Shown piece after piece: positions 10,251 through 16,203 of a stretch of DNA of 16,203 nt; position 1 is the stretch's first letter; each line of letters starts with the position of its first letter. A program made the translations under genes and the position numbers. A model generated the notes under the pieces. It ran no database searches and was not told the DNA's origin. It saw nothing but the letters and a program-made list of their open reading frames with translations. Source of the stretch: a virus (taxonomy: Duplodnaviria > Heunggongvirae > Uroviricota > Caudoviricetes). The stretch lies in the IMG/VR virus record IMGVR_UViG_2547132271_000008, positions 1 through 16,203 of that record; one strand, 5' to 3'.

Positions 10251-10903
10251 TGAGTAATAAATATTGCCAGGCGCTGGTGGAACTGCGGAACAAACCAGCC
10301 CATGAACTGAAGGAAGTGGGCGATCAGTGGCGCACGCCGGACAACATTTTCTGGGGAATTAACACCCTGTTTGGCCCGTTTGTTCTGGATCTGTTCACTG
10401 ACGGTGATAACGCCAAATGTGCCGCGTATTACACGGCGGAAGATAACGCGCTGGCGCATGACTGGTCAGAACGTCTTGCGGAGCTTAAAGGTGCTGCCTT
10501 TGGTAATCCCCCATACAGCCGCGCCAGTCAGCATGAGGGGCAATACATCACCGGCATGCGTTACATCATGAAACATGCCAGTGCCATGCGTGATAAGGGC
10601 GGGCGCTATGTTTTCCTGATCAAAGCTGCCACCAGCGAAGTGTGGTGGCCGGAAGATGCGGACCATATTGCTTTTATTCGCGGGCGTATTGGTTTTGAAC
10701 TGCCTGCCTGGTTTATCCCGAAGGATGAGAAGCAGGTGCCGACAGGAGCTTTCTTCGCTGGTGCTATTGCTGTTTTCGACAAGACCTGGAAGGGACCGGC
10801 AATCAGCTACATCGGGCGCGATGAACTTGAGGCATGTGGTGAAGCCTTTCTGGTGCAGGTTCGCCAGCAGGCGGAAAAACTGGTCAGGGAGATGGCAGCA
10901 TGA
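10250..10903 (+). CDS. phage Dam-type N6-adenine DNA methyltransferase
   Basis: Catalytic NPPY motif (AAFGNPPYSR) and the N-terminal KYCQALVE...WRTPDNIF pattern of small phage Dam-family methylases. Coupled to neighbours (TAATG and ATGA). Confidence 0.7.
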   Translation: MSNKYCQALVELRNKPAHELKEVGDQWRTPDNIFWGINTLFGPFVLDLFTDGDNAKCAAYYTAEDNALAHDWSERLAELKGAAFGNPPYSRASQHEGQYITGMRYIMKHASAMRDKGGRYVFLIKAATSEVWWPEDADHIAFIRGRIGFELPAWFIPKDEKQVPTGAFFAGAIAVFDKTWKGPAISYIGRDELEACGEAFLVQVRQQAEKLVREMAA

Positions 10904-11226
10904 CGACGTTAACTCAATGCCAGCAGCAGGTGCTGGATATGCTGATTTCTTACCAGAAAGAACGTGGCTTCCCGCCAACCAATCAGGAGGTGGCAACCAT
11001 GCTGGGATACCGTTCAGTGAATGCAGCGGTGGAGCATCTTCGCGCACTGGAGAAAAAAGGCGTCATTACGATAAAGCGTGGCGTGGCCCGGGGGATAACG
11101 CTTCATACCGCAGTGAAGGACGACGACAGAGAGGCGGTCGGGATTATCCGCTCACTGCTTGCCGGTGAGGAAAACGCAAGGCTGCGTGCAACCCACTGGT
11201 TACATGAGAGGGACCTGAAAGTATGA
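10900..11226 (+). CDS. LexA N-terminal DNA-binding-domain-like protein lacking the S24 peptidase domain
   Basis: MTTLTQCQQQVLDMLISYQKERGFPPTNQEVATMLGYRSVNAAVEHLRALEKKGVITIKRGVARGITL aligns by eye with E. coli LexA residues 1-70. Only about 38 further residues follow, with no Ser/Lys catalytic domain. Confidence 0.65.
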   Translation: MTTLTQCQQQVLDMLISYQKERGFPPTNQEVATMLGYRSVNAAVEHLRALEKKGVITIKRGVARGITLHTAVKDDDREAVGIIRSLLAGEENARLRATHWLHERDLKV

Positions 11227-13438: not shown

Positions 13439-13455
13439 TTTTGTGGAGAAAGTTG

Positions 13456-13827
13456 ATGCGTGATATTCAAATGGTTCTTGAACGTTGGGGGGCATGGGTG
13501 GCAAATAATCACGAGGATGTGGAATGGTCATCTGTTGCTGCAGGTTTTAAGGGATTAATTCCTTCGAAAGTAAAATCCCGCCCGCAATGTAGCGATGACG
13601 ATGGCCTGATCATTAGCTCTGCGATGACAGTTCTTAAGAAAAAGGAACCGTATCAATACGAATTACTGGAAATGTATTATGTGTATGGGGTTACATTACG
13701 GGCGTTGGGGGTAAAACTGGGGATATCACTTAATCAGGTTGTTATCAGACTGCAGAAAGCTGAAGGGTTTATTGACGGTTGTCTGGCAATGTTGGGGGTA
13801 TCTTTAGAAATTGATTGTTACATATAG
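13456..13827 (+). CDS. late-gene antiterminator Q-like protein
   Basis: About 123 aa with GGAG SD 7 nt before ATG 13456. Last gene of the nin-type block after RusA and DUF968. Sequence (MRDIQMVLERWGAWVANNHEDVEW...YELLEMYYVYG) resembles the small Q family of phage 82/21-type phages. Confidence 0.65.
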   Translation: MRDIQMVLERWGAWVANNHEDVEWSSVAAGFKGLIPSKVKSRPQCSDDDGLIISSAMTVLKKKEPYQYELLEMYYVYGVTLRALGVKLGISLNQVVIRLQKAEGFIDGCLAMLGVSLEIDCYI

Positions 13828-13902
13828 TAATAAATTCAATCAAAGTAAATAATCATATTTTATTATAACCTCCTGATGATACCTGTTCATTGGGAGGTTA
13901 TT

Positions 13903-14520
13903 ATGGATAAAAATGTAGAGCATGTATTAGTTGATGCAATTGAAAATAAGCTATCTTTAACAGTCGTTTACTTAGGAGGGAGCCAGCCCGGAACATTAAG
14001 GAATATTTCTCCGATTAGTATAAATGGGGATAAATTGCGGGCAAGATGCCATAGTTCTGGAGCAGTAAAGGTTTTCAATCTTGGGAAAATACAGTTACCC
14101 AGTGACTCCTGCGCGGTATCTATGCACTATGGAGATTTAGAAGTTAAAGCTTATGAGACGATGCAGAGCGTAAATGACAACTTTCATGCCCTTTATCCTG
14201 AAGGACGATGGGGTGTTGATTTTAATGAGCATCGCTTTGCTTTATTTGATTTTTTTAAAAACGGGAAACGAAAAAAAACGGCATTTATGGCAATTGAGTT
14301 CAGGGAAAGAGATGAAGAGAAAATAATAACAGGTGTAACAATTGATATTGGTATATCTGGAACAGTGATTTCTGAGAAGTCCCGAATCCCAAAAAGACGA
14401 CCATGGGTAGTGGTTGGTCCCGAACACGGAGAATACAGTACTTATTCAACTTTGGACAAGGCTGCTACAGCGTTTTTTGAGAGGCTATCGTTGATAGCAT
14501 CCGGCCTGGAAGATAATTGA
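13903..14520 (+). CDS. hypothetical cargo protein of unknown function; N-terminal segment possibly WYL/SH3-like beta fold
   Basis: GGGAGG SD 5 nt before ATG 13903, 75 bp after Q. Visibly AT-rich compared with flanking phage genes. N-terminal LSLTVVYLGG...LRNISPISINGDKLRARC...KVFNLGKI loosely resembles a WYL-type motif; no confident family. Confidence 0.55.
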   Translation: MDKNVEHVLVDAIENKLSLTVVYLGGSQPGTLRNISPISINGDKLRARCHSSGAVKVFNLGKIQLPSDSCAVSMHYGDLEVKAYETMQSVNDNFHALYPEGRWGVDFNEHRFALFDFFKNGKRKKTAFMAIEFRERDEEKIITGVTIDIGISGTVISEKSRIPKRRPWVVVGPEHGEYSTYSTLDKAATAFFERLSLIASGLEDN

Positions 14521-14650
14521 TTTTATGTTTGGTATTCAGAGTTCGCCGTGCTTAAGAAAGTCAAGATTCTAAAAATACTGAATGAGCTACTTGTGTTATA
14601 ACAAAAATGCTATTAGTGTGTTAAGAGTGGTTACTTCGACACACAACTTA

Positions 14651-14675
14651 AACCCGCCACTGAGCGGGTTTTTTG
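14651..14675 (+). terminator. Rho-independent terminator
   Basis: Stem ACCCGC (14652-14657) / GCGGGT (14664-14669) with loop CACTGA, followed by TTTTTTG. About 130 bp downstream of the cargo gene. Confidence 0.6.
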
Positions 14676-14796
14676 TACCTGTAAACTTGGTGCAGTACAG
14701 TAAACACGCTGGTGGTCGTGAATACTGACTTTTTATCTTGCTGGCTTTTTAGACAAGAGTTATTGGTATGTCATGTTAACCAGAAGGGAAAAAGAC

Positions 14797-15000
14797 ATGC
14801 TAAAACAGCAAGATATGACAGAAACCGCCGCCGCAGTCCTTCATTTCTTACCTGCTGACAAGTGGGTAACGCCACGCATGATGACGAGAACTACCGGAGT
14901 AAGCGAAGCCCGGTGCCAGTTAATACTGACTCAGTTAGTTCTGGCGGGTCTGGCGAAGGATAACGGCGGGTACGGGAATAAATTCAGACGCTGCCAGTAA
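14797..15000 (+). CDS. small putative winged-helix DNA-binding protein (FaeA/PapI-like pattern, tentative)
   Basis: 67 aa from ATG 14797 with AAGGGA SD 7 nt upstream. Pattern AAAVLHFLPADKWVTPRMMTRTTGVSEARCQLILTQLVLAGLAK resembles small wHTH regulators. Lies 150 bp upstream of the methyltransferase. Confidence 0.35.
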   Translation: MLKQQDMTETAAAVLHFLPADKWVTPRMMTRTTGVSEARCQLILTQLVLAGLAKDNGGYGNKFRRCQ

Positions 15001-15150: not shown

Positions 15151-16203
15151 ATGAAAAATACTGTAAAAATAAACAGTGTTGATTTAATCAACGCTGATTG
15201 CCTGCATTTTATTCAGTCCCTGCCTGATGATTCCATTGACCTGATTGTTACCGATCCGCCGTACTTCAAGGTGAAACCCAACGGTTGGGACAATCAGTGG
15301 AAAGTGGACGAAGATTACCTTAAGTGGCTGGACCACTGCCTGGCCCAGTTCTGGCGGGTGTTAAAACCTGCCGGAAGCCTTTATCTGTTCTGTGGGCATC
15401 GCTTGGCATCTGATATTGAGATCATGATGCGTGAACGTTTCAACGTGCTTAACCATATCATCTGGGCGAAGCCGTCCGGACGTTGGAATGGGTGTAATAA
15501 AGAAAGTCTGCGCGCATATTTTCCTGCCACAGAGCGCGTTCTGTTTGCTGAACATTACCAGGGGCCATATCGCGGCAAAAGTGACGGCTATGCAGCAAAA
15601 GAAAGGGAACTCAAACAGCACATAATGGCACCGCTGATATCGTATTTCAGGGATGCTCGTGCCGAACTGGGTATAACGGCAAAACAAATTGCCGAAGCCA
15701 CAGGTAAGAAAAATATGGTTTCCCACTGGTTTGGTGCCAGTCAGTGGCAGTTGCCGAATGAGGCTGACTATCGGAAGTTACAGGCACTGTTTTCCCGTAT
15801 AGCGGCAGAGAAGTTTCAGGAACAACAACTGGAACAACCACACCACCAGCTGGTGGCATCTTATGATTCACTGAATCGCAAATATTCTGAATTGCTGGAT
15901 GAGTTTAAATCTCTCCGGCGCTATTTCTCCGTATCAGTCTCCGTGCCTTATACCGATGTCTGGATGCATAAACCCGTTCAGTTCTACCCGGGGAAACATC
16001 CGTGTGAGAAACCGGCGGATATGCTCAGGCAAATAATCAATGCCAGTAGTCGACCAGGTGATCTGGTTGCTGATTTTTTTATGGGATCCGGTTCCACAAT
16101 AAAAGCAGCAATGGCGCTGGGGCGTCGGGCCTTAGGTGTTGAGCTTGAGTCAGAGCGGTTTAACCAGACAGTGACAGAGATAAACGAGCTGGTGGGGAAA
16201 TAA
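15151..16203 (+). CDS. DNA methyltransferase, beta-class N6-adenine/N4-cytosine type (DPPY motif before the AdoMet-binding FxGxG motif)
   Basis: 350 aa. Catalytic DPPY (IVTDPPYF) near the N-terminus and AdoMet-binding DFFMGSGST near the C-terminus, the beta-class order. No restriction-enzyme partner in the window, which ends at this gene's stop codon. Confidence 0.8.
   Translation: MKNTVKINSVDLINADCLHFIQSLPDDSIDLIVTDPPYFKVKPNGWDNQWKVDEDYLKWLDHCLAQFWRVLKPAGSLYLFCGHRLASDIEIMMRERFNVLNHIIWAKPSGRWNGCNKESLRAYFPATERVLFAEHYQGPYRGKSDGYAAKERELKQHIMAPLISYFRDARAELGITAKQIAEATGKKNMVSHWFGASQWQLPNEADYRKLQALFSRIAAEKFQEQQLEQPHHQLVASYDSLNRKYSELLDEFKSLRRYFSVSVSVPYTDVWMHKPVQFYPGKHPCEKPADMLRQIINASSRPGDLVADFFMGSGSTIKAAMALGRRALGVELESERFNQTVTEINELVGK

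Follow-up and report, generated by a model that had tools for sequence, protein, structure and literature searches.

A WYL-domain protein without a helix-turn-helix, encoded between the Q gene and the putative late promoter of an Escherichia coli phage

Known WYL-domain proteins and prophage cargo

WYL domains have so far been understood as single-stranded DNA (ssDNA)-sensing parts of transcription factors for DNA-damage responses and immune operons. DriD of Caulobacter crescentus (PDB 7TZV and 8TP8) is an ssDNA-sensing WYL transcription activator, in which Tyr168, Ser172 and Arg178 form hydrogen bonds to the ssDNA backbone (PMC9186387). CapW and BrxR are DNA-binding repressors of CBASS and BREX, respectively, with a winged helix-turn-helix (wHTH)-WYL-WCX architecture, and are encoded beside the operons that they control; the ssDNA pocket of CapW contains conserved Ser and Arg residues (PMC11662680). 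The subject of this report is a WYL-domain protein without a helix-turn-helix (HTH), encoded by a 205-amino-acid (aa) open reading frame (ORF) at positions 13903-14520 (plus strand) of the viral record IMGVR_UViG_2547132271_000008. The stretch of 16,203 nucleotides analysed, from a member of the Caudoviricetes, is referred to below as the window, and positions are those of the window unless a locus is named.

Two kinds of phage cargo also bear on this locus. The exclusion or defence genes λ rexAB, P22 sieB and BstA are carried by prophages at immunity-region and operon-end slots. In the Shiga toxin (Stx) phages 933W and H-19B, the late promoter pR' reportedly drives stx expression.

The ORF and its protein

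The ORF starts at ATG 13903, 75 bp 3' of the stop codon of a Q antiterminator gene (ending at 13827), as a preliminary description of this DNA had reported, and its 205-codon frame ends at 14520. The strong Shine-Dalgarno sequence given there is likewise present, as the ribosome-binding site (RBS) GGAGG at 13893-13897, 5 nt ahead of the ATG. An alternative in-frame ATG at 13876, giving 214 aa, was rejected, as it has no RBS and lies inside an RNA hairpin, and the N-termini of homologues coincide with M1 of the 205-aa form. The translated protein (RefSeq WP_000360285.1) is matched over its entire length by phrog_8498 (function unknown). The ORF is a real gene: about 950 homologous clusters exist, and dN/dS between two E. 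coli alleles is 0.24 (pS 0.49, pN 0.17), a sign of purifying selection, to which the WYL domain, together with the first half of the C-terminal domain, is most strongly subject.

Two AlphaFold2 (AF2) models, built from a 5-sequence alignment (pLDDT 73.7) and a 75-sequence alignment (pLDDT 86.6), agree in fold. Both consist of a helix at aa 3-14, a five-stranded barrel to about aa 66, a low-confidence linker and an α/β domain whose five strands come, in sequence, between helices 87-97 and 184-204; a disordered or low-confidence insert at about aa 134-165 is specific to E. coli. The N-terminal part (aa 1-66; 13903-14100, plus strand) has the Sm/SH3-like five-stranded β-barrel preceded by a helix that is found in the WYL domain PF13280, and Y23, G25-G26-S27-Q28-P29-G30, R33, P37, K56, F58 and K62 are conserved in it. 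The C-terminal α/β domain (aa 86-205; 14158-14517, plus strand), of about 120 aa, contains the conserved motifs GW, FKNGKxxK and RPW.

The loose WYL-like pattern which the preliminary description had seen at the N-terminus does reflect a WYL domain. Pfam WYL was matched by 53 of 75 homologues (best E 4.8e-8) and the PADLOC WYL model by 49. Further, a search of the PDB with the family profile retrieved DriD at E 2.3e-4, through the stretch "AIRAAIKGLQALSFRYEGGSTPGRTREVTPLG", and the family and DriD have in common the motif Y-x-GGS-x-PG-x-x-RE-x-x-P. In particular, Y23, S27 and R33 align with the ssDNA-contacting Tyr168, Ser172 and Arg178 of DriD, and among 143 sequences they are conserved in 99%, 93% and 100%, respectively. 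The N-terminal domain is thus shown to be a DriD-like WYL β-barrel; by analogy with DriD, it is probably ssDNA-sensing. The name 'WYL domain-containing protein' is already used in newer PGAP annotations in RefSeq, so that a WYL assignment as such is not new.

No HTH was found in Pfam or NCBIfam scans, and the helix at aa 3-14 of the AF2 models runs straight into the barrel. The protein therefore falls outside the wHTH-WYL-WCX regulator class (BrxR, CapW, DriD and PafBC), in which the WYL domain shares a ligand cleft with the C-terminal WCX (dimerisation) domain. The same scans recognised no nuclease, ATPase or membrane segment, and Pfam assigned no family to the C-terminal domain, either of this protein or of 75 family members. 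NCBIfam gave no match to the protein, phmmer with the single protein found no PDB sequence even at E 10, and a Foldseek search of BFVD returned only noise (one match at E 9e-4, TM 0.23).

Family and genomic contexts

In an exhaustive profile search, 949 clusters (50% identity) passed E ≤ 1e-3, and 191 of these also passed E ≤ 1e-30; a word-indexed search found nine relatives only. Nearly all homologues are 185-210 aa long and align end to end without an N-terminal extension. Among the longer ones (257-372 aa), one carries zinc ribbons and the others have no recognisable additional domain. A homologue of 356 aa is encoded directly after a 649-aa protein with a faint WYL match, beside a phage terminase (locus L077, 3671-6702); here the family could be present in paired or duplicated form.

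Genomic contexts were compared qualitatively for about 14 loci, which is a small sample. In a Leucothrix island, the homologue is found with AAA_15/21 ATPase, FRG, GmrSD_N, HEPN RiboL-PSP and NERD genes, and in a second defence island the accompanying genes are those of an AAA_13/SMC-like ATPase and of an Mrr-nSTAND3 protein. A marine prophage has its homologue 14 bp downstream of a CI-like repressor, a Shewanella prophage has one convergent with an S24-type CI repressor, both in immunity regions, and another is prophage cargo beside HicA and an integrase. A satellite-like element with integrase, capsid, protease, portal and small terminase genes carries a homologue at its accessory end. In phage late regions, one homologue lies between the large terminase and a Rha-type gene and another past the tail genes, while further loci are insertion sequence (IS)-flanked or nondescript chromosomal sites. 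No neighbour gene is conserved among these loci, unlike the case of a regulator encoded beside its operon. A self-contained accessory gene with a part in conflict would be expected to be distributed in this way, which agrees with defence or exclusion somewhat more closely than with anti-defence.

Position between Q and the putative late promoter

The gene upstream of the ORF (13441-13827, plus strand; start at 13456 in the PGAP annotation) is labelled 'antiterminator Q family protein' in RefSeq genomes. Its product matches PF06530 (Phage_antitermQ) at E 5e-48, a family that corresponds to the Q of the Q21/933W type (bioRxiv 10.1101/651190), and is 57% identical to the Q protein of 933W. Downstream of the ORF, positions 14591-14675 can be set in register with the cassette of 933W. 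The 933W record annotates a pR' (TTTACG-16-TATCAT) that overlaps the end of Q, the qut site TGGTTACA and the terminator AACCCGCCGATGCGCGGGTTTTTTTGTACC; the corresponding elements of the window are TTGTGT-17-TAGTGT, G-TTAAGAGTGGTTACTTCG and AAACCCGCCACTGAGCGGGTTTTTTGTACC. The same register holds for PhiR40_1 (TTTACA-16-TATGCT) and for the Stx2a prophage of E. coli O43 strain RM10042.

The putative pR' of the window is accordingly placed at 14591-14619 (plus strand), with a -35 hexamer TTGTGT at 14591-14596, a 17-nt spacer and a -10 hexamer TAGTGT at 14614-14619, an assignment by homology to a 933W feature that is itself annotated as "putative" and not by transcript mapping. The qut-like element TGGTTACT follows at 14628-14635 (plus strand), inside the conserved stretch AAGAGTGGTTAC; it matches the annotated qut of 933W, recurs unchanged in 933W and PhiR40_1 and has a single-base difference in RM10042. 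The cassette ends with an intrinsic terminator at 14650-14675 (plus strand), AAACCCGC-CACTGA-GCGGGTTT followed by further T, which folds at -13.8 kcal/mol (z = -3.1). It is homologous to annotated terminators of 933W, Ayreon and SfV, and among those of 933W it corresponds to the first after pR'. A scan for consensus promoters and terminators flagged neither the pR' hexamers, which are weak, nor the terminator at 14650-14675, a site supported by folding and homology; the latter was, we think, probably missed through extension of the stem into the T-run. Rfam gave no family at the gathering score and only sub-threshold matches over the terminator region, and a comparative paper on pR' contains no promoter coordinates applicable to the window (PMC6266700).

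The ORF is thus placed after Q but ahead of the pR'-qut-tR' cassette, so that it lies upstream of the putative late promoter and, by position, outside the Q-antiterminated late operon. About 760 bp including the ORF thus represent an insertion that separates Q from its own late promoter. This argues against the earlier proposal that the ORF is under pR' and Q control, as the homologue of the 933W-type cassette is situated 3' of the ORF. The preliminary description had also noted a clean terminator after the ORF. A hairpin and T-run are indeed present, but they start 130 nt past the ORF stop, in sequence common to phages without the ORF. The terminator is 99-100% identical to those of mEp460, Ayreon and Stx2c phages, all of which lack the ORF, and homology to these phages picks up exactly at 14651. 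By homology, it is tR', the terminator of the short pR' leader that Q overrides, and hence part of the conserved flank and not the ORF's own. In Ayreon (locus L003, 2218-3030), a Q of λ type (PF03589) is followed after about 100 nt by an annotated terminator, then by an unrelated 141-aa cargo ORF and the conserved terminator (14651-14675 in the window); one and the same downstream block has therefore been attached to different Q systems precisely at this point.

The proposal that the ORF is horizontally acquired cargo agrees well with comparison of related phages. Phages with the same flanks hold other ORFs in this slot, a 147-aa minus-strand ORF in PhiR40_1 and the 141-aa ORF in Ayreon, which are unrelated and without a Pfam match, and 933W has no ORF there. 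The ORF is found in about 74 of 5426 complete E. coli genomes (about 1.4%). The allele of the window accounts for 51-52 of them, and a 72%-identical allele with a GTG start for 22 more. The latter is located in Stx2a prophages between Q and stx2, including those of O104:H21 and O113:H21. In RM10042 (locus L004, 3857-8197), the order is Q, the 205-aa ORF, a small ORF, a methyltransferase, tRNA-Ile/Arg/Arg and stx2AB. On this comparative evidence, the ORF is horizontally exchanged cargo in a variable slot.

The preliminary description had further stated that the ORF has a lower GC content than the flanking phage genes, and this is the case: GC is 0.396 and GC at third codon positions (GC3) 0.320, against GC 0.51-0.57 and GC3 0.54-0.66 for four upstream genes and GC 0.48-0.50 for two downstream genes. 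The low GC is not confined to the ORF, as the block also takes in the 3' half of Q. By part, GC is 0.40 in the 3' half of Q, 0.25 in the Q-ORF gap, 0.40 in the ORF and 0.33 in the second gap, and the minimum of the entire 16.2 kb, in 618-bp windows, is reached in the one beginning at 13761. The limits of a low-GC mosaic block (13615-14618, no strand), which runs from the 3' half of Q through the WYL ORF into the upstream part of pR', are given by PhiR40_1, homology to which breaks off within Q at 13614 and picks up again at 14619. Within Q, the 5' 174 nt are about 94% identical to PhiR40_1, and the 3' 213 nt have no detectable DNA similarity to it; the Q proteins of both phages are full-length PF06530 members that work with one and the same qut-like sequence. 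In 74 of 75 matching E. coli genomes, the 3' half of Q is accompanied by the 75-bp gap, and the ORF is constantly paired with the same Q allele (about 50 viral contigs and 74 genomes). The segment 13615-14618 is thus exchanged as one block. Such strict linkage to Q needs no functional explanation, because cargo flanked by Q and its cognate qut is protected against loss by recombination.

Disrupted copies of the ORF have also been found. An element that we take from its end sequences to be IS1-type (GGTGATGCTGCCAACTTACTGATT) is inserted within the hairpin that contains the RBS in another E. coli prophage (locus L030, 5213-5980; about 13882-13893 in the window). A presumably IS5-type element (GGAAGGTGCGAA...) interrupts the ORF at TTAG, 14137-14140 (locus L059, 4636-5832). 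The two disruptions are independent, and some E. coli lineages also contain frameshifted copies, which suggests that the gene is dispensable or costly.

RNA hairpin at the ribosome-binding site

A 15-bp RNA hairpin is predicted at 13865-13901 (plus strand; arms 13865-13879 and 13887-13901), with the RBS GGAGG in its 3' arm. Its folding energy is -23 kcal/mol, and z ranges from -3.7 to -5.8. The 72%-identical allele of Stx2a phages keeps the hairpin (z = -4.9), with two G-U pairs changed to Watson-Crick pairs and one pair lost. Sequestration of the RBS as a trait of the whole family was considered and rejected, as the hairpin is strong in the two E. coli alleles only. It is speculative that TATTAT at 13861-13866 (TACAGT in the other allele) acts as a weak -10 element from which transcripts would start in the 5' arm and so be without the anti-RBS sequence.

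The best σ70-like match of the region is on the minus strand at 13862-13889 (TGAACA-16-TATAAT, 10/12), within the DNA of the hairpin. It is directed into Q and is partly kept in the Stx2a-phage allele. This promoter candidate could give an RNA antisense to Q, for which λ paQ is the comparison.

Possible functions

An ssDNA-triggered exclusion or defence protein is the function that we tentatively favour, at somewhat less than an even chance. In the proposed mechanism, the ORF would be read as the last part of the early rightward (Q) transcript, or else from its own weak promoter, and its translation would be throttled by the 15-bp hairpin that buries the RBS. The product, a two-domain cytoplasmic protein, would bind short ssDNA by its WYL domain, through backbone contacts of Tyr23, Ser27 and Arg33, as in DriD and CapW. 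Ligand binding would then switch the C-terminal domain, whose output is envisaged as protein-protein contacts or oligomerisation and not as DNA binding. Such a protein may have a role in phage-host or phage-phage conflict: as a single-gene sensor, it would respond to the ssDNA intermediates that a phage forms on infection or replication and would block that phage, by superinfection exclusion or abortive defence.

Several points weigh against this proposal. The single protein scores only 14 bits against Pfam WYL (cut-off 21.8; E 0.052), and the WYL ligand may be something other than ssDNA, for instance ssRNA (as for WYL1) or nucleotides. A catalytic motif, a transmembrane segment and a known effector fold are all lacking in the C-terminal domain, which makes a defence output hard to picture. 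PADLOC-DB 2.0 has no defence-system model for the protein beyond the generic WYL 'associated signaling', the searched literature does not mention the protein, by accession or PHROG id included, and of the small sample of about 14 contexts several are nondescript. In addition, the promoter scan detected no consensus-like plus-strand promoter upstream of the ORF, so that read-through from the early rightward transcript is the default. The place after Q in the E. coli phage favours lytic over lysogenic expression, and in this respect exclusion is no better a fit than an anti-defence or developmental role.

The anti-defence role is rather unlikely in our estimate, although it would make use of the same ssDNA-contact residues as DriD and CapW. 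An HTH-less WYL protein would here serve as a decoy, soaking up the short ssDNA of prophage induction or replication so that CapW and BrxR of the host fail to activate CBASS, BREX and similar systems. The lack of a DNA-binding or effector domain is a feature of known phage sponge proteins, and read-through of the early transcript directly after Q would provide the lytic-phase expression needed. A prophage would also gain by blunting the signal, as λ induction leads CapW to raise CBASS, with virion yield down about 100-fold (PMC11662680). However, homologues in chromosomal defence islands and by prophage repressors, where lysogenic expression is expected, are atypical of anti-defence genes, and stoichiometric sequestration of an abundant ligand requires high expression, whereas the RBS is buried in a hairpin. 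A developmental role, in which the protein senses replication or damage ssDNA and tunes the early-to-late switch of its own phage, is less probable still; its targets could be, for example, the action of Q, pR'-bound RNA polymerase or, as with PsiB, RecA/SOS.

A decaying, functionless passenger held in place by Q and pR' linkage alone is a further explanation, for which the IS1- and IS5-broken or frameshifted copies and the low prevalence (about 74 of 5426 E. coli genomes) speak. Yet dN/dS is 0.24 though the alleles differ at half of their synonymous sites, about 950 clusters retain the full two-domain architecture with its invariant residues, and the predicted fold is confident. Conservation thus largely excludes this explanation, and we regard it as very improbable. 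The broader proposal, that proteins of about 195 aa with a WYL and a novel α/β domain constitute a new single-gene ssDNA-triggered conflict family on prophages, satellites and defence islands, is more doubtful than the function proposed for the E. coli protein.

Neighbouring genes

After tR' come a small ORF (phrog_331), an N6/N4 DNA methyltransferase gene and then holin and lysozyme genes. The small ORF (14773-15000; 67-75 aa) has a weak MarR/TrmB-like signal. The methyltransferase (15151-16203) is an orphan enzyme with a match to PADLOC MTase_II at E 2e-151. This pair of genes is kept in mEp460, cdtI, Stx2c and Stx2a phages, before tRNAs, stx or lysis genes. A 108-aa protein encoded at 10900-11226, in the early right operon between genes for a Dam-type methyltransferase and RusA, consists of a LexA DNA-binding domain only (PF01726, E 3e-19), without an S24 peptidase domain.

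Significance and comparison with known systems

The searched literature does not describe HTH-less WYL proteins with a C-terminal domain of their own as a large family, nor the distribution of this family over mobile elements and defence islands or its placement in the Q-pR' gap, Stx2a prophages included. A family that keeps the ssDNA contacts, lacks a DNA-binding domain and carries a new output domain would represent a second use of the WYL sensor, and since it is spread over prophages and defence islands, a new function in defence or counter-defence is a concrete possibility for it. If the proposals made above are correct, these proteins would be a new kind of anti-phage defence, with an effector domain that has no precedent, or else the first decoy for ssDNA alarm signals to be encoded by a phage. 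As one allele occurs in Stx2a prophages of Shiga toxin-producing E. coli that are negative for the locus of enterocyte effacement (O104:H21 and O113:H21), any effect on induction and toxin expression is of interest; the copy between Q and pR' in these phages could then affect toxin and late-gene output.

Among described proteins, DriD has an N-terminal HTH and a C-terminal WCX dimer domain and binds promoters, whereas the protein of the window has no HTH and a C-terminal fold that appears to be different and is assigned to no family. Similarly, the family differs from CapW and BrxR in having neither a wHTH nor a constant neighbour. As a gene, the ORF resembles rexAB, sieB and BstA cargo in being a single accessory gene of atypical composition that varies among related phages, and its homologues resemble them also by their sites, beside CI repressors and in defence islands. 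The protein itself has no sequence or fold relationship to rexAB, sieB or BstA.

Among phages, 933W is like the window in its Q family, in its homologous promoter, qut and terminator and in the small ORF, methyltransferase and lysis genes downstream. It has no Q-pR' gap, as its pR' overlaps the end of Q. The cargo of Stx phages (stx and tRNAs) is downstream of pR' and tR' and Q-dependent, whereas the ORF of the window is upstream of the putative pR'. Thus, the Q-pR' gap would be a cargo site separate from the post-pR' (Stx) site, at which cargo stays linked to Q and qut.

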